DNA of 32,000 bases. It comes from Edaphobacter aggregans. GTDB lineage: Bacteria > Acidobacteriota > Terriglobia > Terriglobales > Acidobacteriaceae. The DNA is taken from assembly GCF_003945235.1 (NCBI RefSeq), contig NZ_RSDW01000001.1:1200001-1232000 (forward strand). Direction: 5' to 3'. Positions 4,622 to 30,930 of the stretch are shown piece by piece. The notes under the pieces are model-generated. The model was not told where the DNA came from, did no database searches, and saw nothing but the letters and a program-made list of their open reading frames with translations. The first letter of the stretch is position 1. Every line of letters begins with the position of its first letter. Made by a program: the position numbers and the translations under genes.

Positions 4622-4627
4622 CATCAT

Positions 4628-6436: not shown

Positions 6437-6543
6437 AAACATGGATACTTAGCAAGCGAGCTGACGAATTTGAACTCTTCAGCACGAAACCAATAGATGG
6501 AACTTTAGCAATCAAGTCCGAACCTATCTCTTTACCCTAGAAG

Positions 6544-6567
6544 ACTTTGCATGAAAAACACCCCCCG
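6544..6567 (-). terminator. Intrinsic terminator of the ROK regulator gene
   Basis: The minus strand reads GTACCCCCCGGGGGGTGTTTTTCAT. This is a C6/G6 self-complementary GC stem extended by A-T and G-U pairs, followed by a T-run, ~50 nt downstream of the stop at 6618. Confidence 0.5.
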
Positions 6568-6617
6568 GGGGGTACTTCGGCGGCCTCTACTTCGGATCAC
6601 CATCCATTGAGAAGTTT

Positions 6618-9510: not shown

Positions 9511-9596
9511 CTTTAAGCGACGAGAGCCTTCTTATCCGGAGACAAAATCCTTTCAAGATTCAGCAGACATCACGTCCTCAACTTTATTTGATACGA

Positions 9597-9608
9597 GAAA
9601 TAATGATC
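9597..9608 (-). promoter_or_regulatory. ATTATTTC motif copy upstream of the GH3 promoter
   Basis: The plus strand reads GAAATAATGATC. It has the same orientation as the copy at 9659-9672 and lies 62 bp from it, so the two bracket the predicted -35 box. Confidence 0.2.
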
Positions 9609-9639
9609 ATCTCATCGTCACATCTCTTTGACCGGAAAC

Positions 9640-9668
9640 TTGACACTGTTGATTGGATGAAATAATTT
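9640..9668 (+). promoter_or_regulatory. Putative sigma-70-type promoter of the GH3-GH67-manD transcription unit
   Basis: A perfect TTGACA (9640-9645), a 17-nt spacer, then TAATTT (9663-9668). The GTG start at 9724 is preceded by AAAGGA. Confidence 0.35.
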
Positions 9669-9672
9669 CGCG
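9659..9672 (-). promoter_or_regulatory. Candidate operator GAAATAATTTCGCG overlapping the -10 element of the GH3 promoter
   Basis: The reverse complement CGCGAAATTATTTC matches 8081-8094. Its position over the -10 box fits a repressor site. Confidence 0.25.
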
Positions 9673-9723
9673 TCGCATATTCTTTTTTGGCATTTACAGC
9701 TTCCTTACCGAAAGGACCTTCAC

Positions 9724-16177: not shown

Positions 16178-16618
16178 TTACTTAGCAGCATGCAGTGATG
16201 AGGCAATCTCTCGCGCCTGTTCAACGGTACCGTTCTGATACATCACTTCAACAATGCAGACCTTTGAGCTGCTGATCGGTACGATCCGATAGACGTCCGG
16301 CTTCCCGGTAATGGATTGCCCCTCCATCACGAATTCCGTAGGCGAATTCACCGTCACCTTGCTGTTTTTGTAAACGGTCTGCGCCGACTGTTTCGCCTCG
16401 GCATAAGAGTCAATCATCTTGGGCGAACTCACTGCCATCGAAACCTTATGATCCGGAGCGTCGGCCGAACCACCGATATCGCCCGGAACCCAGTTGGCAG
16501 GCACAGAGACCTGGCAGCTTCCATCCCTGCTCTTGATCGTCTGCTTATCTGCAGCCATCGTAAAAGAACTGGCAGCCAGAGCTACTCCAATCACCGCAAC
16601 AACATTCCTGGTATTCAT
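16178..16618 (-). CDS. Small secreted protein of unknown function (PsbP/DcrB-like pattern)
   Basis: 146 aa with a signal peptide (VIGVALAASSFTMA/AD). It has a beta-rich body containing the 'SCQVSVPANWVP' pattern and two Cys residues. A GGAGGG ribosome-binding site precedes the ATG. It lies 128 nt downstream of, and co-directional with, the large operon. Confidence 0.65.
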   Translation of the reverse strand: MNTRNVVAVIGVALAASSFTMAADKQTIKSRDGSCQVSVPANWVPGDIGGSADAPDHKVSMAVSSPKMIDSYAEAKQSAQTVYKNSKVTVNSPTEFVMEGQSITGKPDVYRIVPISSSKVCIVEVMYQNGTVEQAREIASSLHAAK

Positions 16619-16746: not shown

Positions 16747-19700
16747 CTACTGCGTCCTGCCTAGCCGACGATAATACTCAGCCACCGCATCCTGATACCC
16801 CGGCGGCACGGTCGGCGACTTACTCGTCCGCACCTGTCCTGGCTGCGGATCATCTGTATTGCGGCGCAGCTGCAGCTCCAGCTTGTCGACGTCGTTCAAC
16901 ACCTGCGTATGCAGTTGTTCCACCATCTCGGGATTCCCCGGAAAGCGACTCGGATCCAACCGCTGCATCTCCTTCACCAGGTCCTGAATCTCGCGAAGCG
17001 CAGCCGGATCATTCTTAGCTAACTGACGCAGGTGGTTCAGCTCCTGCAACCCCTGATTGATCACTAGCTCCGAGTCTGGAGGAACCGCACCATTGTTCTG
17101 TCCAGTCTGGCGTCGCTGCGTCTGATCGAACTTATTGTCCCCCGTATTCACGTTGTAAGTAACAATCCCTCCGCCACCACCACGGGGTTCATAGTTCCCT
17201 ATATCTCCACTCTCCCCACTTTGGGGATCACCACTGCGTATCCCCGGCTGACCACCACCGCGAAGATCGCCCCCCCGCTGGCCCCCACCCTGTTGCCCTC
17301 CACCCTGCGCATCGCCACGCGCTCCTCCCTGACCCTGTTGACCTCCCTGTCCGCCTTGTCCCGACTGCTGCCCGCGCTGACCTTGTTGCGTTCCCTGGCC
17401 CTGACGCTGGCCTCCCTGTCCGCGCCCAGACGACAAACTCTGTATCTCACTGCGCAACCGCTCCACGTGATCAAGCGCCGCCGCCTGCGTGCCCTGCCCT
17501 GCCTTACTTTGGCCATCACGCTCTGCGCCCATGCCCTGCTGCGCCTGCCGGACTTCATCGCTCAACTTTCTAAGTCCAGACGCAATCTCCTCCTCGGTTC
17601 CGTTCGTGTTCGGATTGATCCCTCTCCGCAGCCAGTCCGCCGTTCGCTGCACACGATTCCCCAAATCCGACTGATCCATCTCGCCCAAAGCATCGCGCAG
17701 CTTCGACGACGTGCCTGGCTGGTTAGGCGCCAGCTCACGCGCCGTATCTCGCAAACCCTTCTCCAGATGCGAGAGATCGTCCGACAGCTGCTGCCGATCA
17801 GACGCCAACTTATTACGCTGCTGCGCTCGCGCGGCCATGTCCTCTGGAGTGGGCTCGTTATTCTCATCCTGCTTACCCGCCAGCGAGCGAATCCGATCCG
17901 CCTGCGCAGCCTGCTCCTTCGCAAGCCGCCCCGCCTCGCGCGACAACGAATCCAACTTGCCGGAAGCCTGCTCCTTCTGCGCTCCCCCTAACAAATTCGT
18001 TGCCTCACGAAGATGCTCCGCCGCCCGCCGAGCCTGCTCAGAGCCTTGCTGGCCTTGCGGCTGACCATTCTGAGGCTGACCGCCCGCGCGGCTCATTGCC
18101 TCATTCGCAGCCCGCAGACGATTCAAGGCTTGCTGCACTCGTGGATCAACACCACCGTCCTTCGAATCCGAATTCGCACCACCTTGCAATCTACCCTGCG
18201 CCTGTTGCGACTGACTCTGCTTCCCTTGGCCAGCCTTTCCCTGTCCTGAACTCCCGTCCGCGCTCTGTTGCCCACCCTGCTGCCCCTGCATCTGCTCCAT
18301 CTCGCGCTGCAACTGTTCTGCCTCACGCCGCAACATCTCCTGCTGCCAACGCTGCTGGAAGGTCTGCGCCTTATTCTGCTCTTGTTGAGCCAACTCTTCC
18401 TGCCGACGAGCCAACGCATCCAACTTCTCCAGGGCCTCATCCACCTTCTTCGCTTGTTCCTCCGCAGGCGAGCCTGTCTGTGCCGTCTCGTACTGATTCT
18501 TCTCCGTATCCAATTCCAGATCGAACAGGCTAGCCAGGTCGCGCCCAGCACCGCCGCCTCCTCCACCACCGCCACCGCGCTGGCCAAACGCAACCTGAAT
18601 CTGTCGGAACGTCGCCTCCGCTCGCAACAGTGCTTGCAGCGCTTTCTGTTCATTCGGCATCGCATCGCGCCACGCAAGCTGCTTCAACTTTTCCGCCGAA
18701 GGAGTCATCGCCGCAGCAGCAGCCTGCATGTCCTTCTCAAAGCTGTTGAACTCTTCATTCGCCGCCTCAAGGTCCCTGCTCTGCATCCTCCCCGACAAAG
18801 CCATCACCTGCTCTCTCAACTTCACTTGCGCCTCCGAGAGCACCTTCCCCATATCCTCCGCCTGCTTTGCCGTCGACGCCTTGTCGTTCAACTGCTTCCA
18901 CGTCGCCGCAATCAGTTCTTTCTCCCTGCGCGAAATATCGGTCTGGTTACCCTGTCCTTGCCCACCTCCACCACCGCCACCTCCACCCATCTGCTGCGAC
19001 TGCGAGAACTCCCGCTCGAACGGATCCGCCTGAATGAAGCTGATGTCTGTGCGTGACTCCGCATGAGCGTCTTTCGCCGTGGCATACAAACTCACCACAT
19101 CGCCTGGCACAAGCTTGAAGTCCTCCAAGCTCAACGTCGTCGATCCTTTAGAACTCTTCGCGCCGTCCTCCTTCAGCAGATTCACCGTCTGCTCCGGCCC
19201 CCCGTTGACGGAGTAATGCAAGGTCATCTGATGAAGCCCAAACTCCGCGCCGGCCCTCACTCCAACCGTCACCTCTTCAATCGGACTCGCCCGATAATCC
19301 TGTCCCGGCCGATCGATAGCAATCTCTGGCGGATTCGCCTTGCTGGTCGAGATGAAGTAGTCCTCCGACAGCCTCACCTGCTGACCTTGATCAATTCCCG
19401 CCACATGGTACGCTCCATCCTTCTCCATATGGATCGTGCCCCGATACCGATTGCCTTCGCCCCCCGTCAGATGCAGCGGCTGCCCGCTGTCCATCACAAG
19501 CACGCCATCCTTCAAAGGCGCATCCATCACCACTGTCAGCTCCGCATCCGTACCCTCCAGCGCACGCAGATCGCCGCTATGCTCCTCCGACACCTGCTGC
19601 AAGCCCGTCCACTTCGGATAGTGATACGTCACCTCGATCTGTTTCACCGCGGGCAGATCCACAACGCGGAAATTAAAGTGCTTCGAACGAACCGGCCCGG

Positions 19701-20472
19701 CCTCCACGTAGTACTCCACGCTCTCCGGAAGCCCCGCAAACAGGAACTGATATCCCTTCCCACCCTCCTCAGCCTGCATCGCCACCGGCTCCCACTTCGA
19801 CGTACTCTGATATCGCGCATACAGATTGACCTTGTTCGTCTCCAACCCCATCACCTGAGCCGTCACCAACTGATCACTGTTGCGCCGCACCGCCGCATCT
19901 CCCGGCGTCACGCGAATCTCATATAGTGGAGCCACATTTTTCTTCGGCCCAGTCCACAGCAACGAAGCCCCGTACCCCAGATAGCCCGGCCCAGCCGCAA
20001 TCATCCACAACAGCACTCCCGCGCAAACCACCCCCGCACTCAACAGCACCAGCAGTCGCGTCTGTGGCACAAGCTGCGCCGGATGAGCATCTCCCGCAAC
20101 CGAAAGCGTGTCCGCAGCCAGCAGTTCAATAAAAGGATCACCCGTCTGTTCCCGCTCTGCAAACGTCACCAGCCGCTGATCAAGCTCAGGAAATGCAGCC
20201 TCCGCTCGATGGATCGATCGCCGCCGATTCAACCGCAGCCACGGGAGTGCCAACCCAAATCCCAACGCCGCCGCAACTAGCCCTAGTAACACCAACCGCG
20301 CAGGAGTCAGCCAATGCTCCGGAAACGCATATCGATTCAGTATCAGTGTCAGAAGAACTGTCGCCACTAGCGCAACCGCGGCCACCCCAGCGGCACCCCG
20401 CACCGAAGCATCCAGCCGCAACCGCTGCTGCACTTGCCCGATGTAGAGGTTGAGCTGCTCTCGCCGGCTCAT
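16747..20472 (-). CDS. Large membrane-anchored DUF4175-like protein with extended coiled-coil and Gln/Gly/Arg-rich low-complexity regions
   Basis: 1241 aa with three predicted N-terminal TM helices, a ~300-aa beta-rich region and long E/Q/K/A coiled-coil-like segments. It has two Gly9 runs and an ~89-aa QG/RGG tract. The conserved tail is PPGYQDAVAEYYRRLG. Its ATG overlaps the upstream gene's TGA (ATGA at 20469-20472). Confidence 0.8.
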   Translation of the reverse strand: MSRREQLNLYIGQVQQRLRLDASVRGAAGVAAVALVATVLLTLILNRYAFPEHWLTPARLVLLGLVAAALGFGLALPWLRLNRRRSIHRAEAAFPELDQRLVTFAEREQTGDPFIELLAADTLSVAGDAHPAQLVPQTRLLVLLSAGVVCAGVLLWMIAAGPGYLGYGASLLWTGPKKNVAPLYEIRVTPGDAAVRRNSDQLVTAQVMGLETNKVNLYARYQSTSKWEPVAMQAEEGGKGYQFLFAGLPESVEYYVEAGPVRSKHFNFRVVDLPAVKQIEVTYHYPKWTGLQQVSEEHSGDLRALEGTDAELTVVMDAPLKDGVLVMDSGQPLHLTGGEGNRYRGTIHMEKDGAYHVAGIDQGQQVRLSEDYFISTSKANPPEIAIDRPGQDYRASPIEEVTVGVRAGAEFGLHQMTLHYSVNGGPEQTVNLLKEDGAKSSKGSTTLSLEDFKLVPGDVVSLYATAKDAHAESRTDISFIQADPFEREFSQSQQMGGGGGGGGGQGQGNQTDISRREKELIAATWKQLNDKASTAKQAEDMGKVLSEAQVKLREQVMALSGRMQSRDLEAANEEFNSFEKDMQAAAAAMTPSAEKLKQLAWRDAMPNEQKALQALLRAEATFRQIQVAFGQRGGGGGGGGGAGRDLASLFDLELDTEKNQYETAQTGSPAEEQAKKVDEALEKLDALARRQEELAQQEQNKAQTFQQRWQQEMLRREAEQLQREMEQMQGQQGGQQSADGSSGQGKAGQGKQSQSQQAQGRLQGGANSDSKDGGVDPRVQQALNRLRAANEAMSRAGGQPQNGQPQGQQGSEQARRAAEHLREATNLLGGAQKEQASGKLDSLSREAGRLAKEQAAQADRIRSLAGKQDENNEPTPEDMAARAQQRNKLASDRQQLSDDLSHLEKGLRDTARELAPNQPGTSSKLRDALGEMDQSDLGNRVQRTADWLRRGINPNTNGTEEEIASGLRKLSDEVRQAQQGMGAERDGQSKAGQGTQAAALDHVERLRSEIQSLSSGRGQGGQRQGQGTQQGQRGQQSGQGGQGGQQGQGGARGDAQGGGQQGGGQRGGDLRGGGQPGIRSGDPQSGESGDIGNYEPRGGGGGIVTYNVNTGDNKFDQTQRRQTGQNNGAVPPDSELVINQGLQELNHLRQLAKNDPAALREIQDLVKEMQRLDPSRFPGNPEMVEQLHTQVLNDVDKLELQLRRNTDDPQPGQVRTSKSPTVPPGYQDAVAEYYRRLGRTQ
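17167..17433 (-). repeat. Cryptic coding low-complexity repeat (GQ/RGG-rich, ~89 aa) inside the DUF4175-like gene
   Basis: The plus strand shows reiterated CCCTG/CCACC/CTGTTG units. The translation is SSGRGQGGQRQGQGTQQGQRGQQSGQGGQGGQQGQGGARGDAQGGGQQGGGQRGGDLRGGGQPG…PRGGGGG. Confidence 0.7.
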
Positions 20473-22493
20473 ACTTCCTCCCGCTGCGTGCCCAGGTAGC
20501 GGCTGGCCACCACCGACTCAGCCACCGCCGCGATCAGTATCAAAAGCATAACCCACCACCACAGGCTGTACGCGTTCTTTTTCTCTTCCCCAGCCGCAGC
20601 GGCCACCCCCTGGGTCGCAGCCACATCGGCATTTCCACTCCCGCTCCAAAGCTTCAGTACATCCTGCGGAATCAAATCCAGCCCCGACTCCCGCCGATCC
20701 GGATTCACCGCAATCAGCGCATCCCGGCCATTTGCGAACCGTATCTGATAGAAACCAGCGCGCGTCAGCCGCAACGACTGCGCCGCAGCCTCCTCCTGCA
20801 GCGACAAAGGCCGCTTCCCATCCGGCCCCACGATCTCTACCGACGCTCCCTGATTTCCCTCATTCGTCACGCTCCGCAACTGCACAAACGAGTCCACGAC
20901 CCTCGCTCCACTCAGCCGCTCCACGCCCGAAAGATACCGCGCCGACTGATCGACGAACGGCACAAACGCCGGATGCAGCGGAAGATCATTCGTCACATTA
21001 TCGAAGCCCGATGCAAACACCAGCACATGCCCCTGCCCAATCTGCTTATCCATAAGCAGCGGAGTTCCATCAGCCAGCCGAGCCGCCACACGCGAACGAC
21101 CCGCATCCACCACCGTCGCATAGTAAAACTTCGCATCCTTCCAACCCGCTGACTCCTTCATCGCAGGATGCGACCCATCCACCTGCCCAACATTCGAGAA
21201 ACCTCCAGCCCGCGAATAAAACCGTGCGTCGCTCGCACTCTCTCCAAACACAGGAATCCGTTGACGATGTGCCTCCGAAGTCCCCACCGCAATCAGAACG
21301 CTGCCGCCATTCTTCACATACTGCAACAAGCTGTTCTCCAAAATCGACGGTATAGACACCACATCCGACAGCACCACAAATGCATACTTCGTAGGATCAG
21401 CATCCGCCGCCTGATCAGCCAGAATCGGCTGCAACACAAACGACGCCTGCGCAGCAGCTGCCAACGCCGAACCAAAATAAAGCGCGGACCGCGAGTCCCC
21501 CGCCTGATGCACAAACAACACCCGCTCCGGGTCAGCCCGCTTCACCGCAAAGCTGCTCGCATCATCCACCGGAAATCCATCCGCAGCATCGATTCTCACC
21601 TCGCACCGGTTCGCACCATAGGGCACGTCAAGCGACTCGAACGCGACCGTCGCCCGCCCATCCGCCGGCACCTCCACCTTCTTCATCAAAGCAACCGTGC
21701 CATTGATAATCAGCGACACAGTACGCGTCGCCGCCGGAGTCTGATGTCCCGCAATCACCGCCAACACTCGCGCCCTCTTAGGATCGACCAGCTGCCCCGG
21801 GGCCTCCACGCTCTCCACTGTCCAGTTCGGCACCGCAGCCTTCGCCACCGGATGCAGCACCAGCAAGACATTGCCCGGCATCACCATATCGGCAAAGTTC
21901 ACCGGCATATTCGAAGCCTGCATATCGCTGAACAGATGCAAATCCACCGGCGTATGCACTGTCTCCGTCAGCGCCCTCATCCCGCGCCCCAACTCGCCGA
22001 AGTTGCTCCGCGAATCACCGGGCTGAATACTCTCAACCGCAGCCTTCAGCGCACCAGCATCCTTTATCGGCTGAGTCAGTACCTGCAACTCATCACTCAA
22101 CACCATCACCTGCGCACGCTGTGACGGCTTCCGCGTCGCCAGAACATCCAGCGCTCCTCGCTTCGCATCGTCCAACCGCGTCCCCGCACGCATGCTGAAC
22201 GAATTGTCGACCACAACCACTAACAATCGGTCGCTCGCAACCGCTGATGATCGCCGCAAAAACGGATTCGCAAATACGAGTGCCAGCAACAACACCAACA
22301 ACGCGCGCAAACTGAACAGCAACAGATAGCGCAGTTTTCTGTGCCGCGTCGAACTCTGCGTTCCGCGCTCAAAGAACATCAACGAACTCACTGGCCTCGG
22401 CGTCGTCACATGCCGCCGAAGCAAGTGGATGTACACCGGCAGCCCCACCGCCGCCAGACCCGCCAGAAACCACGGGGCAAGAAAGCCCATCAT
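20469..22493 (-). CDS. BatA N-terminal-domain membrane protein with VWA-like domain (Bat/aerotolerance-operon family)
   Basis: 674 aa. The N-terminus MMGFLAPWFLAGLAAVGLPVYIHLLRR matches the BatA_N pattern. A MIDAS-type motif VVVDNSFSM (DxSxS, 22194-22208) and a C-terminal TM helix (LWWWVMLLILIAAVAESVV) are present. ATGA overlaps occur at both ends. Confidence 0.8.
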   Translation of the reverse strand: MMGFLAPWFLAGLAAVGLPVYIHLLRRHVTTPRPVSSLMFFERGTQSSTRHRKLRYLLLFSLRALLVLLLALVFANPFLRRSSAVASDRLLVVVVDNSFSMRAGTRLDDAKRGALDVLATRKPSQRAQVMVLSDELQVLTQPIKDAGALKAAVESIQPGDSRSNFGELGRGMRALTETVHTPVDLHLFSDMQASNMPVNFADMVMPGNVLLVLHPVAKAAVPNWTVESVEAPGQLVDPKRARVLAVIAGHQTPAATRTVSLIINGTVALMKKVEVPADGRATVAFESLDVPYGANRCEVRIDAADGFPVDDASSFAVKRADPERVLFVHQAGDSRSALYFGSALAAAAQASFVLQPILADQAADADPTKYAFVVLSDVVSIPSILENSLLQYVKNGGSVLIAVGTSEAHRQRIPVFGESASDARFYSRAGGFSNVGQVDGSHPAMKESAGWKDAKFYYATVVDAGRSRVAARLADGTPLLMDKQIGQGHVLVFASGFDNVTNDLPLHPAFVPFVDQSARYLSGVERLSGARVVDSFVQLRSVTNEGNQGASVEIVGPDGKRPLSLQEEAAAQSLRLTRAGFYQIRFANGRDALIAVNPDRRESGLDLIPQDVLKLWSGSGNADVAATQGVAAAAGEEKKNAYSLWWWVMLLILIAAVAESVVASRYLGTQREEV

Positions 22494-23383
22494 CTTCCTC
22501 CCGGACGAAGGAACAGATACTCGCTCAACGCCGCATCCAAAGGCCGGTCCGTCACCAGCAGGTGATAGTCCATCCCTGCAGCACGAGTTCGCTCGCTCAT
22601 CTGCTCGAGATGGCTATCCATCTTCTTGCGATACTCACCCTTCACATACTCCGGTATCACCTCAAGCCGCTGCTCCGTCTCCATATCCACCAAAATCGAA
22701 GGCCCGCGCAGCTCCGGCCGTATCTCCTTCGGATCCAACACGTGGAACAGCACCACATCACTCCCATGAAAGCGCAGCGGCTCGATCGTCTTCACAATAG
22801 TCTCCGGTGACTCATAAAAATCCGAGATCACCAACACCACACCACGTCTGCGCAGAAACTCCTGAAAGTGCGCCAACGGCTTCATAAAATTTGTGCGCGC
22901 CCTCGGCTCTGCCTGCTCCAACCCTGCAAGCAACCGATGCAGCTGCCCTTGTCGCGTCGAAGGCCGTATATAGTTCCGCACCTCGTCATCGAACACAATC
23001 AATCCCGCCGGATCGTGCTGATTATGAATCGCCAGATAGAACAGCGAAGCCGCCGTATACCGTGCATAGTCCATCTTCGACACTGCATGCGAGCCATAGT
23101 TCATTGAATTGCTCGCATCAAGCAGAATCGTCAGCTGGCTATTCGTCTCACCCCGATACCGCTTCAGATAGCAACGCTCTGTCCGCGCAAACAAATTCCA
23201 ATCCACATGCCGCAGATCATCCCCCGGCGTATAAGCGCGATACTCCGCAAACTCCTGACTGAAACCGAAATCCGGCGAACGATGCAGTCCTGCCACAAAG
23301 CCGTCTACCACCGTCTTCGCAACCAGGTCCAGTCCGGAGATACCAGCCAGCACCGCGGGATCGAGAAACCGTTGCACCTTCAC
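22490..23383 (-). CDS. DUF58 domain protein (VWA-fold, MoxR-associated)
   Basis: 297 aa. It has the family pattern HRSPDFGFSQEFAEYRAYTPGDDLRHVDWNLFARTERCYLKRY and DxSxS in LLDASNSM (23105-23119). The GTG start overlaps the MoxR TGA (GTGA). Confidence 0.88.
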   Translation of the reverse strand: MKVQRFLDPAVLAGISGLDLVAKTVVDGFVAGLHRSPDFGFSQEFAEYRAYTPGDDLRHVDWNLFARTERCYLKRYRGETNSQLTILLDASNSMNYGSHAVSKMDYARYTAASLFYLAIHNQHDPAGLIVFDDEVRNYIRPSTRQGQLHRLLAGLEQAEPRARTNFMKPLAHFQEFLRRRGVVLVISDFYESPETIVKTIEPLRFHGSDVVLFHVLDPKEIRPELRGPSILVDMETEQRLEVIPEYVKGEYRKKMDSHLEQMSERTRAAGMDYHLLVTDRPLDAALSEYLFLRPGGR

Positions 23384-24408
23384 ACCTCCTTCGGTGGCGG
23401 CATATGCGCCAGCAAGCGCTGCAGAATCTCATCCGAATCAATCCGCTCCGACTCCGCATGAAAGTTCAGCAGAATGCGATGCCGCAACACAGGAAGCACC
23501 AACGCTTGAACATCGTCATACGTCACGTGATAACGCCGCCGCGACAACGCCCGAGCCTTCGCCGCCAGCACAATAAACTGCGCCGCTCGAATGCTCCCGC
23601 CATAGTTCACATACTTCTTCACAAAATCCGGCGCGTTCTCACTCTTATGCCGCGTCGCCCGCACTAGATTCACCACATACCGAGCCAGCGATTCGGCAAT
23701 CGGAACCATCCGCACCAGCTGCTGAAACTCCAACAGCTCCCCCGCACTCGTCACCGCGCTCACCTGCACCACCTTCGTCGCCGTCGTCAGATCGACAACC
23801 TTCAACTCATCAGTCGCACTCAGATAATCCAGCAACGTGTTGAACAGAAACCGATCCAGCTGAGCCTCAGGCAACGGATATGTCCCCTCCAACTCAATCG
23901 GGTTCTGCGTCGCCAGCACGAAGAACGGCGAAGGCAACCTGTAGACATGCCCGCGCACCGTGCACGACCCCTCTTGCATCGCTTCCAGCATCGCCGCCTG
24001 CGTCTTCGGCGGAGTCCGATTAATCTCATCTGCCAACACGACATTGCCGAAGATCGGACCCTCGACAAATGTCCACTTCCGATGCCCCGTCGTCACATCC
24101 TCTTCAATAATGTCCGTCCCAGTAATGTCTGAAGGCATCAAGTCAGGAGTGAATTGGATCCTCCTGAACGTCAACCCCAGCGTCTCCGCAATCGTGCGCA
24201 CCATCAGCGTCTTCGCCGTTCCCGGCATTCCAGTGATGAGGCAATGGCCGCCCACAAACAACGCGATGAGTATCTGGTCCAGCACCTCATCCTGCCCCAC
24301 AATCACCTGTCGCACCTGGGCAAGGATGCCATCGCGCACCGTCTGGAACCGTTCAATGCGCTGCTGCAGTTGGGCTACATCCGGCGTCAGTTCCGCAGTA
24401 ATCTCCAT
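23380..24408 (-). CDS. moxR: MoxR-family AAA+ ATPase
   Basis: 342 aa with Walker A GMPGTAKT (24208-24231) and Walker B VVLADEINR. It also has IQFTPDLMPSDITG, ATQNPIELEGTYPLPEAQLDRF and a typical MoxR C-terminal helical lid. Confidence 0.93.
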   Translation of the reverse strand: MEITAELTPDVAQLQQRIERFQTVRDGILAQVRQVIVGQDEVLDQILIALFVGGHCLITGMPGTAKTLMVRTIAETLGLTFRRIQFTPDLMPSDITGTDIIEEDVTTGHRKWTFVEGPIFGNVVLADEINRTPPKTQAAMLEAMQEGSCTVRGHVYRLPSPFFVLATQNPIELEGTYPLPEAQLDRFLFNTLLDYLSATDELKVVDLTTATKVVQVSAVTSAGELLEFQQLVRMVPIAESLARYVVNLVRATRHKSENAPDFVKKYVNYGGSIRAAQFIVLAAKARALSRRRYHVTYDDVQALVLPVLRHRILLNFHAESERIDSDEILQRLLAHMPPPKEV

Positions 24409-24424
24409 CGATTAGCATCCCTCT

Positions 24425-26665
24425 CTAATTAGGTTTTTCAGATTTGTTTGCGTCCGTCCCTTTGCTCTCTTCCGACTTGATCTGCAACAACAACTTCTGT
24501 GCGGGCCTAAACCCCGGAGCAGTCTCCAGCGCCAGCAGCACGCTCTCCTCAGCCTTATCCTTCTCGCCTGCCGCAAAGTACGCCTGCGCCAGGTCAAACT
24601 CTGCCGACGCCTTATCCAGCGGCTTCAACGCCAGCACTGCCGAATACTCCCGCACCGCGCCAGCGTAATTGCCCTGCGCCAACCACAACTCTCCAAGATG
24701 CCGATGCAGCCCTTCACTCTCCGGATAGATAAAGTTAATCCGATCCAGCGTAGCCGCAGCCTCCTTCGCATGGCCCAACTCTTCTTCAAGAGACGCCAGC
24801 TTCGTCAGCGCCTCCGGACTCTCGCCGCCCATCTTCTCGTAAGCAGTTAGTGTAGCCATCGCGCCCTGCTTATCACCTTTCGCCAGCTGCGCCACCGCGA
24901 AAAACTCATACGCGTTAGCATCCCCGACATACTCCGGATACATCCGCAACACCTCCGGAGCAGCCTTCACCACAGCATCATTCTGCTTCGACTCGGCCAA
25001 GGTCGCTAGCTCCTTCAAACCCTTGCGCCAGGCGTCGAAGTTCGCCGCCGTCTGCCCGGCACGCTTCTCCAACCACGCCATATACGCCTTGTCGAACTCC
25101 TCCGGCGATATCTGCAAATCCTTCTGGATCACTTCCGGCGTTGTCTTCAGCGCCGCAAACGAGTGCACCATCTCCAGCAGCTTGTCATCGCCCCACCGCT
25201 GCTTGATGTAGTCGCAGATGCTCCCCGCCTGAAAGTACGAAACCACCACCTGCGACGGATACTCCGGAAAAATAAATCCCTGATCCATCTGCGCAACCGG
25301 CAGCAGTTTCTTGTCGCGTATCGCCAGCAGCACCTCCGGCGTCAATCGATCACTCCACTCCGGCGAAGCCTCACCCTCCTCATGCACCGCAAGCCCCTCC
25401 GTAAACCACCGCGGCACGCGATGATTCGTCGCCGACAAAATGTACACGTGGCTCATCTCATGCCACAACGTAGCGCCCCAATTGAACTCGCCCGGCTTCC
25501 TCCCCGACGGACTATCCATCGCCACCACCTCGCCAAACGTCACGCCCAGCGCGCCCAACCCCGGCATCCCCATCGTGCGCACCGCAAAGTCCTCATGGTC
25601 GGGATACACCTCCAACTGCACCGGCCCCGGCAACTTCATCTTGTACTTCTTCTCATACGCCGCCATCGCCTTATGTAACTCCGCTTCAAAATAAGGTCGC
25701 AGCAACTCCGCCTCATTCTTTCGCAACTTCAGAATCGTCGTGTCATCCCGAAAGATCACAAAATTCTTGTAGCTATCCAGCAGCCGCAGACTATTCACTG
25801 TCGCAGCATCACGCTGGCCGTTGTTGTAGCTCATCTCCAATTGCTTGAGCGGCTCCTCCTCCTGCCCAAGCCGCATCAGATTGATTCCCAACTGCGACCG
25901 CGCCGCCCACAACTTCGGATCAGCCTCAATCGCCTTGCGATAATACGCAACCCCATCTTCATACCGCCGATTCAGCACCAGGTGATAACCCACCAGCGCG
26001 TACCCTTCACCATAAGAAGGATTCACCGCGCGTATCTTCGCAAACCAGACATCAGGCGAACGATCCGCGAGCACCTCCACCGCTGCATGCACAGCCATCG
26101 CCTCCAACGCCTCGTTCGACAGAGCAATCGCCTTGTCCGCCTCCTCCACCGCCACCTGAGTCTTTGAATTCTCAAGCGCAAGATTCGCCTTCAACTCATG
26201 CGCCTCCACCAGCTTCGGATCAAGCATCAAGGCCTTCGCCGTATACTCCTCCGCCTTGCTATCAAAACCATCCGCACTCACCAGCGCCAACCCCAGATAC
26301 GCCCGCGCGTTTGTCGAGTCCTGCTGCAAGGCCTCATTGAAAAGATCGACCGCCTCTTTATTGTTGAAGCGCTCATGCAGCAACAATCCCCATCGCACGC
26401 GATAGATCGCCTTACTCCCCGGCTGCGCAACCGCCGCACGAAACGCCTCATTCGCCTGCTCGTACTGCTCCAATCCCCAAAGCCCCTCCGCTCGCAGATA
26501 AGCATCGTTGCTTCGACTCAACGTCTCGTAGCAGGCATTTGCCTCCGCCCGCTGACCATGCTTACGCAATGCATCGCAACTCTCCAGCGTCGCCGCAGCC
26601 GCAGCCCATCCCGTGCCAGCCAAAGCCAGCACAAGCACAGCGCCGCATCTACCAAGCGAAATCAC
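24425..26665 (-). CDS. Secreted TPR-repeat protein with central Peptidase_MA-like (HExxH…E) zinc-metalloprotease domain
   Basis: 746 aa with a signal peptide. Multiple TPR-like A/Y/L-rich repeats occupy both termini. A central WHEMSHV (HEMSH at 25448-25462) is followed 17 residues later by WFTEGLAVHEE, a gluzincin/Peptidase_MA_2-type pattern. The GTG start overlaps the upstream TGA. A 16-nt gap containing AGAGGGA precedes moxR. Confidence 0.78.
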   Translation of the reverse strand: MISLGRCGAVLVLALAGTGWAAAAATLESCDALRKHGQRAEANACYETLSRSNDAYLRAEGLWGLEQYEQANEAFRAAVAQPGSKAIYRVRWGLLLHERFNNKEAVDLFNEALQQDSTNARAYLGLALVSADGFDSKAEEYTAKALMLDPKLVEAHELKANLALENSKTQVAVEEADKAIALSNEALEAMAVHAAVEVLADRSPDVWFAKIRAVNPSYGEGYALVGYHLVLNRRYEDGVAYYRKAIEADPKLWAARSQLGINLMRLGQEEEPLKQLEMSYNNGQRDAATVNSLRLLDSYKNFVIFRDDTTILKLRKNEAELLRPYFEAELHKAMAAYEKKYKMKLPGPVQLEVYPDHEDFAVRTMGMPGLGALGVTFGEVVAMDSPSGRKPGEFNWGATLWHEMSHVYILSATNHRVPRWFTEGLAVHEEGEASPEWSDRLTPEVLLAIRDKKLLPVAQMDQGFIFPEYPSQVVVSYFQAGSICDYIKQRWGDDKLLEMVHSFAALKTTPEVIQKDLQISPEEFDKAYMAWLEKRAGQTAANFDAWRKGLKELATLAESKQNDAVVKAAPEVLRMYPEYVGDANAYEFFAVAQLAKGDKQGAMATLTAYEKMGGESPEALTKLASLEEELGHAKEAAATLDRINFIYPESEGLHRHLGELWLAQGNYAGAVREYSAVLALKPLDKASAEFDLAQAYFAAGEKDKAEESVLLALETAPGFRPAQKLLLQIKSEESKGTDANKSEKPN

Positions 26666-27591
26666 TTCTCCAACTCTCCTTGCACCGTCGCCAATTGCAA
26701 TAGTGCCTCCGTCAACTGCTTCTTGTAATCCCCCGGATCCATCGCCGCCTTCTGATACTTCAATGCATCGATCTTCTGTTCCAGTTCCTCCTTCTTCATC
26801 AGCAAATCCCTCTTCGCCGGATCATTCATCGCCGCCTGACTCGCTCCGATCCGCACCACTGTCAAACTCGAAAGCAACGCTCCCTCTCTGCCCTGCACCG
26901 CAACTGCACGCACCGCTTCACCACGTCCCGTGTCTTCGAACACCGCATGCTCTGTAGCCAGCCGTTTTTGCGACTCATAAAATCCTGCCGTCTTGCGGTC
27001 AGCATACTGAAACGCCTCCATCGCGCTGATTGACTCGCTCTTGTCCACATCCGCCGTCGGATCCTGCAACGCCTCCACCCAGTACCGCGCGAATACCGTT
27101 GCATTCTTCTCCGTGCCCGTCTTCGTCGCCGCAATCACACCACGCCCCGGCCGCTCCAACGCCGCCACCGCCCCCCCACTCGCACTCGTCGTATTCACCA
27201 CCAACTGACGCCGCGCCGGCACCTTGTCGCACATCGCCGCCAGCTCAGCCGCCGACACATCCGGGCCCACCAAATTAAACTTGTACTCCACACCATCAAA
27301 CGACCCATGCCCAATCAGCGTCAGCACAAAATCATCCTCGGGTTTCGCATCACGCGCCACCGCAGCCATCATCTCCGTCAGCCGTGCCCTCGTCGCTTGA
27401 TTCCCTGTCAACGTATAGACATGCGCACCACTTGAAGCCTTGAACACCTTGTCCAAATCCTTGGCCGTCGCCGTAAATCGCTGCTCATAATCCGGCTCAC
27501 CCCCAAGTCCTGCCACCGTGACGTAGTACACACTCGCTCGCATAGGCGACACTGCCAACAGCACTCCGCACATTGCAAGCGCGAGCCTCAT
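26662..27591 (-). CDS. Secreted legumain/C13 (caspase-fold)-like protein with C-terminal coiled coil; the catalytic Cys position appears to be Ser
   Basis: I place the start at the internal ATG 27591 (MRLALAMCGVLLAVSPMRA…, a signal peptide). It forms an ATGA overlap with the upstream stop, whereas the track's 27672 start would overlap the upstream gene by 85 nt. The body aligns by eye with legumain: DDFVLTLIGHGSFDG against DHIFVYFTDHGSTG, and QLVVNTTSASGG against MVFYIEACESGS. The CDS itself is well supported; the family call is tentative. Confidence 0.6.
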   Translation of the reverse strand: MRLALAMCGVLLAVSPMRASVYYVTVAGLGGEPDYEQRFTATAKDLDKVFKASSGAHVYTLTGNQATRARLTEMMAAVARDAKPEDDFVLTLIGHGSFDGVEYKFNLVGPDVSAAELAAMCDKVPARRQLVVNTTSASGGAVAALERPGRGVIAATKTGTEKNATVFARYWVEALQDPTADVDKSESISAMEAFQYADRKTAGFYESQKRLATEHAVFEDTGRGEAVRAVAVQGREGALLSSLTVVRIGASQAAMNDPAKRDLLMKKEELEQKIDALKYQKAAMDPGDYKKQLTEALLQLATVQGELEK

Positions 27592-29873
27592 ATCACACCC
27601 CACTTGCGCCGCAGCATCCATTGCCCCGACATCAACCCCAGCAGCAACAGAAACACAATCGGCATGTTCCAAAGTTCCTTCGTATCCCGCACCGAGATCC
27701 CCGCCTCCGAGTACGAAATCTCGCGCGGCAGCCGCCCCAGCTCATCCGCCTTCCAATACCTCCCACCAGTCTGCGACGATAACTTCTCCAGCAACTCTCG
27801 GTTCTGCTCTGTGTGAAAGTTCTCCGCCACACCATCCGTCCGCTCGAACGTCAGCACATCTCTTCCCAACTCATCCGCACCACGCCCAGCCGTCACCTCT
27901 GTCACATACGATCCCGGCTTTTCCGCCGTCCACTCCGCTTGAAATGTCCCGGCATTGTCCGGCACCGGCCTCATATCTACCAGCGCCGACGTACCCTCAG
28001 GCCCAATCACATGCGCCACAACACGCGCATCCGGAGCGGGCACATACTCCTTATCTCGCACCGTCGCCGTCAACCGCACTCGCCCATCATCCATCAACCT
28101 CTGTACTGGCATCGACGCCATCACGCGGCCCGGAGAATCAGCCGCCACCCATCGCAACAACTGCTGCCAGAACATATCGTGCGTCGGATCACCCAGCGCC
28201 TGACTCATCTGCCACCGCCACGTCCCCGACGTCGCCATCACCGCCGTCCGTCCCCGTCCGTAGTTCTGCGTCACCAGCAGCGGAAGTCTGGCACGCCCCA
28301 CGTTCATCTCCGCCAGCACAGTTGCACCCGGCTTCGGACTCCCCGCATCCTGATAGTCCATCATGTAAGGCAGCTTCTTCCACCGCTCTACATTCTTCGT
28401 CGGATCATCCAGCAAACGCATCACCGCACTATCCGCACCCGCCGCCGTCAACTGTGCCGTAGCCGGATCGCGATGGAACGTATTCTTCCCATTCGGCAGA
28501 AAAGTCGGCAGCAACTCGGTCACACTCGAAGCACCCCATCCACCATCGGCCAGTGCAAATCTTCCACCCAGGAACAGCAGCCCACCGCCTCGCCGATCCA
28601 CAAACTCACGCAGCAGTTCCTGCTGCCTCGGCGTAAAGTATCCCGCCTCCACCGATCCGATGATGATCCCGTCATAGCGAAACAGGTCCTCGGCCTTCAC
28701 CGGAAAACCATCCGCCAACTCCCCCGGATCGCTGATCCCCTGCCGATAAATCTTGTTCTCCGTCGTCCGCAGCATTGAAACGATCTGCATGCTGTGGTCA
28801 TCCTCCGCAGCACGCCGGATAAACTTGTACTCCCACCGCGGCTCACCCTCCACATACAGAATCCGCCGCCGATCCCCACTCACGCTCACCAGCCGAGCCG
28901 TCGCATTGTTCGCAACATTCTCCTCGCCCCCCAACGGCTCCAACGAAAACTGCACCTGCTTCACTCCAGCCGTTCCCGCATTGAAGAACACCGTCTCCGC
29001 CTGAATCGCCCCATCCGCGCCTAACGTCACATCCTTTGACGCCAACGCCTTATTACCATCCTTCACCACCAGCGTCGTCTTACCACCCGCATAACCGCGC
29101 TGATGAAAACTCACCGTAGCCTTCATCCGCGAATCCGCCAGCGCCCGCGAGGCCACACTCACATCATCCATCTCAACGTCATGTCCCGCCTGCTCCTTCC
29201 CAAACCCCACCGTATGTACCGGCAACCGCCGATTCCTCAGCGAGCTGATCGTCTCCAGATCAATCCCGCCGTTATTCTCTCCGCCATCACTCAGCAGCAC
29301 GACTGCCCCCACAGGCAGGTCCGCCGTCTCTGCCACCAACTGCTTCAGCCCGTCATTAATGTGAGTAGCCGAAGCCGTCGCCTGCATCCCGTCCACCTTC
29401 TCAACACGAGCGATCCTCGAATCCATCCGATACACCCGCGTCTGAAACCGCTGCTGCAACCCCGCCAGAATCCCCTCGTTCAGTGAACGAATCGCAGCAG
29501 CCTCCCGCGCAGTCTTCCCATCACCGCCACTATCAGCAATCGCCATGCTTCGCGAGTCGTCCACCAACACAGCAATCAAATTCTGCTGCGACTTCAACTC
29601 CGCAACCGTAATCGCTGGCTGCCACAACAGCACCAGCACCAGAGTCACCAACAGCGACTGAAGCAGCCAAACCACACCCGCTCGCCAAGTCTGCATCTTC
29701 GGAGCTGCTTCGGGCAGCCGCGACCGTATAAGCCACCCCAACCCTGCCACCGACGCAACAATCAGCAGCAACAATACCCATCCCGGCCACGCGCCAAGCA
29801 GCACCAACCTGCCTTTGGTAAACACCGTGATTGGGTACTTGAAGAAAAATTCAAACATGCCTGGGGCCTGCAT
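27588..29873 (-). CDS. Membrane protein with VWA domain and class-I glutamine-amidotransferase-like (DUF1355-type) domain
   Basis: 761 aa. Two N-terminal TM helices follow MFEFFFKYP. There is a MIDAS motif VLVDDSRSM (29547-29561) and a VWA end LLSDGGENNG. The GATase-like core is RRILYVEGEPRWEYKFIRR…GGGLLFLGG, and a C-terminal TM anchor (IVFLLLLGLMSGQWMLRRKWG) closes the protein. The start could instead be Met6 (29858). Confidence 0.8.
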   Translation of the reverse strand: MQAPGMFEFFFKYPITVFTKGRLVLLGAWPGWVLLLLIVASVAGLGWLIRSRLPEAAPKMQTWRAGVVWLLQSLLVTLVLVLLWQPAITVAELKSQQNLIAVLVDDSRSMAIADSGGDGKTAREAAAIRSLNEGILAGLQQRFQTRVYRMDSRIARVEKVDGMQATASATHINDGLKQLVAETADLPVGAVVLLSDGGENNGGIDLETISSLRNRRLPVHTVGFGKEQAGHDVEMDDVSVASRALADSRMKATVSFHQRGYAGGKTTLVVKDGNKALASKDVTLGADGAIQAETVFFNAGTAGVKQVQFSLEPLGGEENVANNATARLVSVSGDRRRILYVEGEPRWEYKFIRRAAEDDHSMQIVSMLRTTENKIYRQGISDPGELADGFPVKAEDLFRYDGIIIGSVEAGYFTPRQQELLREFVDRRGGGLLFLGGRFALADGGWGASSVTELLPTFLPNGKNTFHRDPATAQLTAAGADSAVMRLLDDPTKNVERWKKLPYMMDYQDAGSPKPGATVLAEMNVGRARLPLLVTQNYGRGRTAVMATSGTWRWQMSQALGDPTHDMFWQQLLRWVAADSPGRVMASMPVQRLMDDGRVRLTATVRDKEYVPAPDARVVAHVIGPEGTSALVDMRPVPDNAGTFQAEWTAEKPGSYVTEVTAGRGADELGRDVLTFERTDGVAENFHTEQNRELLEKLSSQTGGRYWKADELGRLPREISYSEAGISVRDTKELWNMPIVFLLLLGLMSGQWMLRRKWGVI

Positions 29874-29920
29874 CTCGAAAAGCGGTGCTGCACTTCCATC
29901 AACGACAATCCATCAGACAA

Positions 29921-30724
29921 TCAGTGCGTCATGCCATAAACGATATAGTTCAGCCCCACGCGAAACGCCATGGAAGCAAACTGCTCCGGGTACTCCGGAT
30001 CGTCCGCCCACTCCCACGCATCGCCCAGGTGCATGTTGTGGCAAATCGCAACCACGATCCGTCCATGGTCATCGCGAATCGCCCGCCACTTCGCCACATA
30101 GCCGTCCTTCTCATACGTCCTGCCCGTGCGAATGTACTGCTCGCCCGGCACCTGAAACCGATCGTCCATGTCATACAGCACATGAAAAATCTCGTCCTTG
30201 TTCTCCAAATCCTCGACCGGCCGATCCGGAAAGACCTGCCGCATGCCATTCATGAAGTTCTCCCAATCGGCCGTCCCGTGGAAATCATCCACCATCAGAA
30301 ATCCGCCCTTCAGCAGATACTCCCGTAGCCGCTTCGCCTCTTCCTCCGTAAACGACCACGTCTGCACCTGCACCGCATACACCCACGGATAATTGAAGAT
30401 ATCGTCCGAATCCAGGTTCACCACCTGCTCTGTAGGACGACCCTCAATCCGCGTCAGCCGATTCAGCGCAATCAAAAACTGCCTGTCAGCCTTCGGATAA
30501 TCCCGCGACCAGGTCGCCCACCCGCGCCCATAGTACCCACCATATCCCCCATAACCGCTGCTCCCCAGGTTCGACGTATAACTCAGCCGCGACCACGCAA
30601 ACTCAGCCTTTACATTACTTTGCTCCGGCTGATACCCCCAGTCCGCCACCCGCTGATACGCAGCCACCGCCGAGCAGAACACCACTGCGACCACGGCAAC
30701 CAACATCGCCTGCACGACCTTCAT
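29921..30724 (-). CDS. DUF4159 domain protein (signal-anchored), first gene of the MoxR/VWA operon
   Basis: 267 aa with an N-terminal hydrophobic anchor. The family-like pattern is FAWSRLSY…DYPKAD…LDSDDIFNYPWVY…EEAKRLREYLLKGGFLMVDDFHG…FPDRP…LGDAWEW…GLNYIVYGMTH. The match to DUF4159 is recalled from memory, not searched. Confidence 0.78.
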   Translation of the reverse strand: MKVVQAMLVAVVAVVFCSAVAAYQRVADWGYQPEQSNVKAEFAWSRLSYTSNLGSSGYGGYGGYYGRGWATWSRDYPKADRQFLIALNRLTRIEGRPTEQVVNLDSDDIFNYPWVYAVQVQTWSFTEEEAKRLREYLLKGGFLMVDDFHGTADWENFMNGMRQVFPDRPVEDLENKDEIFHVLYDMDDRFQVPGEQYIRTGRTYEKDGYVAKWRAIRDDHGRIVVAICHNMHLGDAWEWADDPEYPEQFASMAFRVGLNYIVYGMTH

Positions 30725-30871
30725 CGGCGGACCCCCGGTAGTGGGTGCTAGTAGGCGCGAGAATATCAGACTTTCCGATCAATCCGTGCCCGGCAACGTT
30801 CGCCCCTACGGTGTTGCTATAGACGAAGCCCACCGGCAACATGTTGCGTCCACCCATCACGATTTCGCCCA

Positions 30872-30877
30872 TATAAT
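30872..30877 (+). promoter_or_regulatory. Consensus -10 hexamer TATAAT upstream of the second GH3 gene
   Basis: A perfect TATAAT lies 54 nt upstream of the ATG at 30931. No convincing -35 box sits at 16-18 nt spacing. Confidence 0.25.
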
Positions 30878-30930
30878 GGCCACGCTTCAGAAATCGCTTT
30901 CTCAAACGCATCTAGCAGGAGACAAACCAC

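Follow-up and report, generated by a model that had tools for sequence, protein, structure and literature searches.

A conserved eight-gene cassette around MoxR, DUF58 and BatA_N genes in Edaphobacter aggregans, with a putative role in the cell envelope

A stretch of 32,000 nucleotides of the Edaphobacter aggregans genome (contig NZ_RSDW01000001.1, positions 1,200,001 to 1,232,000; hereafter the window) encodes a cassette of eight genes, g1 to g8, whose products are a DUF4159 protein (g1), a VWA/GATase1-like membrane protein (g2), a protein of predicted legumain fold (g3), a tetratricopeptide repeat (TPR) protein with a peptidase domain (g4), a MoxR AAA+ ATPase (g5), a DUF58 protein (g6), a BatA_N/VWA membrane protein (g7) and a DUF4175-like giant protein (g8). 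The best reading of this locus is that of a self-contained, vertically conserved module that would build an inner-membrane and periplasmic complex serviced by a cytoplasmic AAA+ motor. That the eight genes are one conserved functional module seems to us very probable. The specific mechanism by which MoxR and DUF58 would be coupled to the membrane, together with a role in the envelope, is drawn by analogy and is tentative, somewhat short of even odds. We give the combined statement a probability of roughly 0.55. Part of this is already known: the MoxR-DUF58-BatA_N core is a neighbourhood of the MRP type, and every domain family except that of g3 has a Pfam entry. What is new is a distinct and widespread type of MoxR/DUF58/BatA_N envelope cassette with an apparently dedicated family of predicted legumain fold.

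The initial annotation of the window made its proposal depend on the genes being conserved together outside this genome, and they are: the same genes were found in the same order in distant genomes. We compared 80 species-level genomes of Terriglobales, the best 80 of at least 575 g3 matches among species-representative genomes. All eight genes are present in the same order wherever the contig is long enough (g2 to g4 in all 80, g1 in 75, g5 in 72, and g6, g7 and g8 in 71 each), and most of the absences fall at contig ends. Overlaps of 4 nt between consecutive genes are kept at g2/g3 in 68 of 77 cases, at g3/g4 in 63 of 75 and at g7/g8 in 31 of 37, with lower frequencies at g5/g6 and g6/g7.

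More remote loci were reached with a profile of distant g3 relatives. Four of them (L081, L083, L084 and L085) have the eight genes in identical order; g3 is there only 34-41% identical to its Edaphobacter counterpart, and every protein is a full-length orthologue, with identities of 31-65%. One of the four, L085, carries P0383, which NCBI names as coming from a Pseudomonadota metagenome-assembled genome (MAG). The cultured Gemmatirosa kalamazoonensis (Gemmatimonadota) has all eight genes on a 1.1-Mb plasmid, with the DUF4159 gene shifted to between g4 and MoxR, and variants of the cassette occur at L088-L090. Searches of plasmids with g1 and g7 (tblastn) returned essentially Gemmatirosa only, and no annotated alphaproteobacterial example.

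A scan of metagenomes with the most divergent g3 subfamily as its seed gave 80 contigs, about 40 of them informative, to which hidden Markov models (HMMs) of the eight families were applied. On these contigs g2 lies directly upstream of g3 in 33 of 37 cases and MoxR lies downstream in 37 of 38; where there is room, DUF58 is found in 21/22, g7 in 18/18 and g8 in 15/15. The interval between g3 and MoxR (n=37) contains g4 and DUF4159 in 16 cases (and in 2 more with a duplicated call), g4 alone in 9, DUF4159 alone in 8 and nothing in 2. The near-invariant core of the cassette is thus g2-g3 together with MoxR-DUF58-g7-g8, whereas the TPR-peptidase is optional and DUF4159 is variable. The MoxR-DUF58-BatA_N trio, which had been regarded as the core from the start, is kept across the divergent loci, and the partners said to have been added to it (DUF4159, g2, g3, g4 and g8) are conserved with it far outside this genome. 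With this gene order found again at well over 100 independent loci, chance falls far short of explaining the arrangement. The flanking genes differ in every lineage, which indicates that the eight genes are themselves the unit.

Several loci of this collection deserve separate mention. The loci L057, L061 and L077 are labelled as MAGs of Acetobacteraceae, Verrucomicrobiia and Novosphingobium, and their cassettes are 70-73% identical to that of Edaphobacter, which is the level of identity of genuine Acidobacteriaceae genomes. They are probably mis-binned contigs that should not count toward phylum breadth. At L086 (15466-16662), in a 6.2-Mb genome, a transposase of the IS481 family stands directly after DUF58, and g7 and g8 are missing, a natural disruption of a cassette that is intact in the near-identical L081. 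A histidine kinase and a sigma-54-dependent response regulator are encoded immediately upstream on the same strand, at about 4000-6800, in L081, L082 and L086, which belong to one lineage.

In Edaphobacter itself, the eight co-directional open reading frames (ORFs) proposed on the minus strand, from 30724 to 16747, were all recovered (Table 1). The 4-nt overlaps reported at five of their seven junctions are present, as ATGA at 27588-27591, 22490-22493 and 20469-20472 and as GTGA at 26662-26665 and 23380-23383. The genes do not overlap at the remaining two junctions, where 47 nt separate g1 from g2 and 16 nt separate g4 from g5. The longest ORF of g3 starts with TTG at 27672. The annotated ATG at 27591 gives a normal signal peptide and a product of 309 aa, a length typical of most relatives, and the ATGA overlap that results is kept in most related genomes; the protein is EDE15_1026 of Edaphobacter aggregans (100% identity). 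Hydropathy analysis of the eight proteins agreed with the claim that only MoxR and DUF58 are free of signal or transmembrane (TM) segments. Taken with the distribution of charges, it places g5 and g6 in the cytoplasm and gives g1, g3 and g4 cleavable-looking signal peptides, while g2, g7 and g8 are polytopic in the membrane, with the greater part of each protein predicted to be outside it. Neither a sigma-70-like site, a sigma-54 consensus nor an Rfam element was found in the 206-nt upstream region or in the cassette, and neither contains a meaningful repeat.

Table 1. Genes of the cassette and the region upstream of them, in coordinates of the window.
Feature	Positions	Strand	Basis
g1, secreted DUF4159 protein, 267 aa	29921..30724	-	Pfam PF13709
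g2, inner-membrane VWA/GATase1-like protein, 761 aa	27588..29873	-	GATase1_like, weak VWA, TM segments
g3, periplasmic protein of predicted legumain/caspase fold (clan CD, C13-like), 309 aa	26662..27591	-	AlphaFold2 model and Foldseek
g4, periplasmic TPR - gluzincin metallopeptidase - TPR protein, 746 aa	24425..26665	-	Peptidase_MA_2, TPR families
g5, cytoplasmic MoxR AAA+ ATPase, MRP type, 342 aa	23380..24408	-	AAA_3, AAA_lid_2
g6, cytoplasmic DUF58 protein, VWA fold, 297 aa	22490..23383	-	DUF58, VWA_2
g7, inner-membrane BatA_N/VWA protein, 674 aa	20469..22493	-	BatA, VWA_2, TIGR02226
g8, DUF4175-like giant protein, 1241 aa	16747..20472	-	orthologue DUF4175 scores, AlphaFold2 model
Divergent intergenic region between g1 and a GH3 gene, 206 nt; presumed promoter region of the cassette	30725..30930	.	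GH3-like ORF start near 30931

The motor of the cassette is g5, whose designation as MoxR is borne out by matches to AAA_3 (PF07726; 3e-60, 202 bits against a cut-off of 27) and AAA_lid_2 (PF17863; 6e-15, 55 bits). Its closest solved structure is 2r44, a Cytophaga hutchinsonii protein (E=1e-77) that we take to be a MoxR of the MRP type. Distant loci keep it at 63-66% identity, more than any other gene of the set, and its Walker A (G60-M-P-G-T-A-K-T67) and Walker B (L125-A-D-E128) motifs are 100% conserved in 70 orthologues. The DUF58 gene overlaps the MoxR stop codon, and the BatA_N/VWA gene comes next. The DUF58 label of g6 is equally clear (PF01882, 8e-43, 146.5 bits against a cut-off of 23.4; VWA_2, 3e-10); the protein has no TM segment, and its metal-ion-dependent adhesion site (MIDAS), D89-A-S-N-S93, is 100% conserved. 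By analogy with other MoxR partners, g6 is presumed to be the adaptor of g5. In two loci (L003, 13185-15074; L145, 9477-11360) MoxR and DUF58 read as a single ORF of about 629 aa. The two genes may truly be fused there, or the MAG assemblies may have an indel in the 4-nt overlap; a true fusion would speak for a physical complex of MoxR and DUF58.

The membrane-bound VWA proteins come as a pair. For g7, the BatA_N/VWA label is backed by BatA_N (PF07584, 4e-16), VWA_2 (1e-11) and TIGR02226 (1.7e-15). The protein has an N-terminal two-TM hairpin with a basic cytoplasmic loop, a VWA domain predicted to be periplasmic, a region homologous to the GATase1-like and immunoglobulin (Ig)-like part of g2, and a C-terminal TM segment. 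Its MIDAS (D96-N-S-F-S100) is 100% conserved, and the hairpin loop carries the conserved motif HLLRR..P.P.SSLMFFE..QSS.RHRRLRY. The description of g2 as a membrane protein with VWA and GATase-like parts fared unevenly: GATase1_like (PF07090; 3e-10, 40.6 bits against a cut-off of 27) and the TM segments are there, and the direct VWA match is weak, as are those to Big_1 and Filamin, with a MIDAS (D105-x-S-x-S) that is 98% conserved among orthologues. Its layout is an N-terminal two-TM hairpin that likewise has a basic loop, a periplasmic VWA domain, the GATase1-like module, an Ig-like domain and a C-terminal TM segment. Aligned as profiles (hhalign), the g2 and g7 families match over 519 columns with a probability of 97.4% (E=1.4e-11). 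By this measure the two are paralogues, which implies that g7, too, carries a GATase1-like/Ig-like region and that the cassette encodes one predicted architecture twice: a BatA_N-type hairpin, VWA, GATase1-like and Ig-like domains, and a TM helix. A DxSxS MIDAS is present in all three VWA domains (g2, g6 and g7), at 98-100% across orthologues. The periplasmic location of a BatA-type VWA domain is known from experiment for Borrelia BB0173 (PMC5700661).

A third GATase-like module, by family assignment, is provided by g1, in which the DUF4159 model aligns over positions 10-202 of 202 (PF13709; 7e-45, 153 bits against a cut-off of 25.9), as its label predicted. A signal peptide at its N-terminus is followed by a Gly/Tyr-rich linker and by a domain with the fold of the class-I-GATase-like clan, and orthologues of the protein in distant loci are 42-52% identical. 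DUF4159, GATase1_like and ThuA share a Pfam clan (PMC4702930), and by family assignment the cassette holds three GATase1-like-clan modules (g1, g2 and g7). Comparisons of DUF4159 with g2 and with g7 by hhalign were not significant (E=0.05 and 0.23), so it is the Pfam clan that carries the shared fold of DUF4159 with these two proteins. The nucleophilic Cys of the Cys-His-Glu triad is missing throughout: g2 has no Cys at all, none is conserved in the relevant part of g7, and in g1 no Cys is conserved at 97% or more. None of the three can therefore act as an amidotransferase; they are structural modules. Extra copies of DUF4159, up to three per cassette, occur in L084 (5154-6140), L085 (6091-6864), L088 (13743-14489), L143 and L149. 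The copy of L084 has a twin-arginine translocation (Tat) signal (PF10518, 6e-4), a hint that DUF4159 may cross the membrane already folded.

The last gene of the core, g8, had been called DUF4175-like. It has no Pfam or NCBIfam match, even when searched in pieces at E<=10, and TIGR02302 does not match it. Its full-length orthologues are at or near the DUF4175 threshold: those of L084 and L085 reach 32.7 and 26.3 bits on PF13779 (cut-off 27.3) and align collinearly with g8 at 33% identity across more than 1000 aa, and a few close relatives carry a precomputed match to this model. These scores give the label indirect support, and it is probably right in substance. Members of DUF4175/TIGR02302 presumably have two to three TM helices at the N-terminus and, after them, a long extracytoplasmic region rich in Gln and Gly, an architecture that g8 fits. 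Its N-terminus has three TM helices and a helical cytoplasmic loop of about 60 residues, in which E91 is 100% and D121 96% conserved. The AlphaFold2 (AF2) model of residues 1-500 (mean predicted local distance difference test, pLDDT, 84) has a bundle of helices in the membrane and, after it, three Ig/FN3-like domains in tandem (about 185-482), for which Foldseek returned generic tandem Ig/FN3/MG arrays only. The rest of the protein is about 600 aa of coiled coil and Gln/Gly-rich low-complexity sequence. Two poly-Gly runs (496-504 and 633-641), about 137 residues apart, are found at equivalent places in most of the distant orthologues compared (L083, L084, L085 and L087), and the extreme C-terminus carries the motif AEYYRRLG, which across phyla takes the form (V/I)A(E/D)YY(R/K)(R/K)LG. 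The only functional mention of DUF4175 in the literature searched is the Acinetobacter division protein AdvA. We rejected it as a functional clue: the annotation covers its N-terminal two-TM region and is too partial to transfer.

The description of g3 as legumain-like finds no support in direct HMM searches, which gave no Pfam or NCBIfam match even at E<=10 and did not hit PF01650, but it agrees with the predicted fold. An AF2 model built on 100 sequences (pLDDT 86) has legumains or asparaginyl ligases as its top 18 matches in the PDB (Foldseek, E 5e-8 to 8e-7); the best is human legumain (E about 5e-8), and further down the list are MALT1, the caspase-like GSU0716 and PIGK, a subunit of the glycosylphosphatidylinositol (GPI) transamidase. 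By sequence, the PDB offers a marginal match to GSU0716 (E=0.17 with the single sequence, 0.03 with a profile), and many distant g3 relatives carry a weak precomputed match to PF01650 (Peptidase_C13). The model thus supports a caspase-hemoglobinase fold of the legumain kind, preceded by a signal peptide and ending in a C-terminal helical hairpin. The conserved positions of the family are G94-H95-G96, S136, S138-G139, T156, D181, E192 and E214-H215. The first of these motifs, a His-Gly after the third strand, is invariant in 154 aligned sequences. The catalytic Cys of clan CD is missing in the family, save for a Cys at position 137 in 3/154 sequences, where the residue is otherwise A, S or T. 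At the nucleophile site the motif is S136-A137-S138-G139, with Ser136 at 100% in alignment A4 and in 52/54 sequences of A1. Sequence alignments do not separate residue 136 from residue 137 as the equivalent of the Cys, and it is at neither of them. In human legumain, the distance from the His to the Cys is 41 residues, which is that from H95 to S136 in g3.

The g3 family is very large (2469 clusters at 50% identity, E<=1e-3), and its members lie inside this cassette in every case with visible context but one. That exception is a g3 homologue at L151 (1-1038), where no MoxR, DUF58, g7 or g8 is detectable in the 10 kb downstream. One may speculate that g3 is an active enzyme that uses His95 with Ser136 or Ser138, i.e., a serine peptidase or transpeptidase of clan CD comparable to the legumain ligases and GPI8. 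It would then process or ligate subunits of the cassette, e.g., the poly-Gly or Gln-rich segments of the g8 stalk, in an "inside-out" machine whose AAA+ motor switches periplasmic MIDAS adhesion modules in the manner of integrin ectodomains. We regard this as a long shot.

The other peptidase-like protein, g4, was described as a TPR protein with an HExxH motif, and it matches Peptidase_MA_2 (PF13485; 5e-12, 46.4 bits against a cut-off of 32.4) as well as many TPR families. Its putative active site, H402-E-M-S-H406 with E429/E430, is 100% conserved in 69 orthologues. The claim of two protease-like proteins therefore holds in part: g4 looks catalytic in the usual way, and g3 lacks the catalytic Cys. 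Two peptidase folds tied to a MoxR/VWA pair could point to ATP-dependent degradation or processing next to the membrane, with MoxR unfolding substrates recruited by the VWA proteins and g3 and g4 cleaving them, and Zhang and Aravind have proposed a comparable system for MoxR-vWA-YebA, the last being a transglutaminase-like peptidase (PMC3495828). Nevertheless, the signal peptides of g3 and g4 put the membrane between them and the ATPase, the Cys at position 137 is confined to the few g3 sequences mentioned above, and g4, with its fully conserved HExxH...EE, is missing from many cassettes. We find this explanation unlikely.

Under the reading that we favour, an envelope module serviced from the cytoplasm, the MoxR hexamer would dock on the DUF58 VWA protein, as in NorQ-NorD, CbbQ-CbbO and RavA-ViaA, and the DUF58 MIDAS would grip an acidic residue that a membrane subunit presents in one of its cytoplasmic loops. 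Candidate targets are the loop of the BatA_N hairpin of g7 (and g2) or the g8 loop with E91 and D121, because, MoxR and DUF58 aside, no other cytoplasmic surface of the cassette is conserved. Hydrolysis of ATP would remodel, assemble or switch the membrane subunits and might thereby set the state of the periplasmic VWA/MIDAS and GATase-like ectodomains. These ectodomains would in turn bind DUF4159, the Cys-less legumain-fold protein, the TPR-Zn-peptidase where it is present, and the stalk of g8, whose Ig domains and coiled coil may span the periplasm.

The physiological role of such a complex is likely to be the maintenance or assembly of the cell envelope, to judge from comparable systems. 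Mutants of the Rhizobium operon RL3499-RL3502, studied by Vanderlinde in 2011, are said to have defects in the envelope and in cell shape. The Arc2 cluster of Pseudomonas aeruginosa, seven genes of the MoxR/VWF kind, protects against a pore-forming toxin of the type VI secretion system (T6SS) (PMC8926400), and the bat operon of Riemerella affects stress resistance (PMC11834572).

Several observations weigh against this reading. Mutants in the Leptospira bat genes had no envelope or oxidative-stress phenotype (PMC3557215), so the phenotypes of relatives are inconsistent. The contact of MoxR and DUF58 with the membrane subunits is inferred from the conservation of cytoplasmic loops only, and neither an outer-membrane component nor an obvious substrate was found among the eight proteins. 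Furthermore, 10 of 37 divergent cassettes, about a quarter, have no g4 in the interval from g3 to MoxR, so that this gene does not belong to the invariant core, and DUF4159 varies in place and number and is not always adjacent.

The resemblance to the Bacteroides aerotolerance (Bat) operon, to which the initial annotation had likened the locus, is real in its centre and fails around it. The cassette could be an orthologue of the Bat operons of Bacteroides, Leptospira and Francisella, with a function in oxidative-stress tolerance or periplasmic redox control: MoxR, DUF58 and a BatA_N+VWA membrane protein are common to both, and g4 has TPR repeats, Bat operons having been described as clusters of MoxR, DUF58, VWA and TPR genes. 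However, BatD (PF13584) has no match in the eight proteins at E<=0.01 and none in either terminal piece of g8 at E<=10, and BatB, BatC and BatE are absent, with scores of 26 bits for VWA_BatA_Lepto (cut-off 380) and 15.6 bits for TPR_BatC_Lepto (cut-off 175). MoxR is the fifth gene of eight here and in related loci, not the first, and g7 is 674 aa long and carries an additional GATase-like region, while in Borrelia BB0173 the VWA domain reaches no further than residue 328. In the Bat literature examined, DUF4159, g2, g3, the g4 peptidase and the DUF4175-like protein are not named as Bat components, and a role in aerotolerance is disputed even for genuine Bat operons (PMC3557215). Orthology with the Bat operon is therefore quite unlikely in our view.

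We see about as little prospect for a chaperone that inserts or activates a metal cofactor, comparable to NorQD, CbbQO and CobST, in g4 or in a metalloprotein encoded elsewhere. A MoxR with a MIDAS-bearing VWA partner is the signature of such chaperones (PMC9976466, PMC13036017), and all three MIDAS motifs of the cassette are intact. Yet no conserved client enzyme adjoins the cassette, its flanks differing in every lineage; six of the eight products belong to the envelope and are not known to have anything to do with cofactors; and g4, the one candidate inside, is dispensable in many cassettes.

The eight genes might also be two or three unrelated operons that happen to be adjacent (g1; g2-g4; g5-g8). 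The 47-nt and 16-nt gaps fall exactly at these boundaries, DUF4159 moves and g4 can be lost, and the bat genes of Leptospira have independent promoters (PMC3557215). Against this, in 37 of 38 divergent loci, and in every distant genome looked at, g2-g3 and g5-g8 remain side by side on one strand although their neighbours are completely different, and a gap of 16 nt leaves little room for a terminator and a promoter, which makes a chance juxtaposition very unlikely. Least credible of all is a conflict or anti-phage defence system of the MoxR-vWA type, which could be suspected from a secondary match of g5 to bpMoxR (2e-10), its weak PADLOC match to mad8 and the caspase-like fold typical of such systems (PMC7159879), but the bpMoxR match reaches 40 bits against 202 bits for AAA_3 (3e-60), the eight proteins include neither a beta-propeller nor an effector or toxin domain, PADLOC matches none of them except g5, the caspase-like g3 is periplasmic and lacks the Cys, and order and sequence are stable across the whole order, unlike those of mobile defence islands.

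The rest of the window (8725-16141 on the plus strand, 6618-7916 and 624-1811 on the minus strand, 30931-32000 on the plus strand) resembles a region for the utilisation of glucuronoxylan or hemicellulose. It encodes an SDR protein, a glycoside hydrolase of family 3 (GH3) with a PA14 insert, a GH67 alpha-glucuronidase, a ManD-type dehydratase of the enolase superfamily, a ROK-family regulator, a GH27 alpha-galactosidase and a second GH3 that is divergent from the cassette. None of these genes is conserved beside the cassette in other genomes. An ORF of 146 aa at 16178-16618 on the minus strand, 128 nt downstream of g8 and with a signal-peptide-like N-terminus, was considered as a ninth gene; it has no Pfam match and was excluded because it has no homologue in any related locus. 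Another, of 329 aa at 30955-31944 on the minus strand, is rich in Gly, Val and Ala and was discarded as spurious, since it is merely the antisense reading of the plus-strand GH3 gene. Two further ORFs, at 2044-3456 (plus strand, 470 aa) and 4628-6253 (minus strand, 541 aa), have no Pfam match at E<=0.001.

Operons of the MoxR-DUF58-BatA type are among the most widespread bacterial gene clusters that lack a molecular function. The eight-gene version defined here has sharp boundaries, a clear core, a compartment for each of its parts and motifs that can be mutated, and Gemmatirosa kalamazoonensis offers a cultured carrier outside Acidobacteriota. It also gives a context to the g3 family, which with at least 2469 clusters at 50% identity has no Pfam model and appears to be dedicated to the cassette. 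Acidobacteriota and Gemmatimonadota are dominant phyla of soil, and if the complex maintains their envelope, it bears on how these slow growers survive stress and antagonism. If the proposed coupling is true, it is also a new entry to the question of how MoxR ATPases act on targets across a membrane. We found no description of the eight-gene composition in the literature searched, and no paper there that links DUF4159, DUF4175, GATase1_like or legumain with MoxR.

Among known systems, the Bat operons of Bacteroides fragilis, Leptospira, Borrelia (BB0170-BB0176), Francisella and Riemerella share with the cassette a MoxR of the MRP type, DUF58, a BatA_N+VWA protein with a periplasmic MIDAS and TPR repeats somewhere in the cluster. 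They differ in that the BatA_N protein of the cassette is twice as long, with its GATase1-like/Ig region, and in that its sole TPR protein is a fusion with a gluzincin peptidase and not of the BatB, BatC or BatE type. Relative to Bat, the cassette adds DUF4159, a second BatA-like paralogue, the legumain-fold protein, the gluzincin peptidase and the DUF4175-like giant. The cmd operon of Rhizobium leguminosarum (RL3499-RL3502) reportedly has four genes, for MoxR, DUF58 and two large transmembrane proteins, and may be compared with g5-g6-g7, plus g2. Legumain and GPI8 (family C13, clan CD) resemble g3 in its predicted fold, in the invariant His-Gly and in a "..xSG" motif after the next strand; in g3, in contrast, the Cys is replaced (Ser136-Ala137-Ser138), and the protein is bacterial and periplasmic, has a C-terminal helical hairpin and has no Pfam C13 match. 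NorQ-NorD, CbbQ-CbbO and RavA-ViaA, which served as the model for g5-g6, also combine an AAA+ hexamer with a MIDAS-bearing VWA adaptor that remodels a target. They act on enzymes, soluble or in the membrane, that are encoded nearby, whereas the cassette has no client enzyme and its partners are envelope proteins. The Arc2 cluster of Pseudomonas aeruginosa (PA4317-PA4323), which we compared by its description, is likewise a co-conserved cluster, of seven genes, with a MoxR-like ATPase and a VWF-domain protein, and it guards the cell against a membrane-damaging (ColA) T6SS toxin (PMC8926400).

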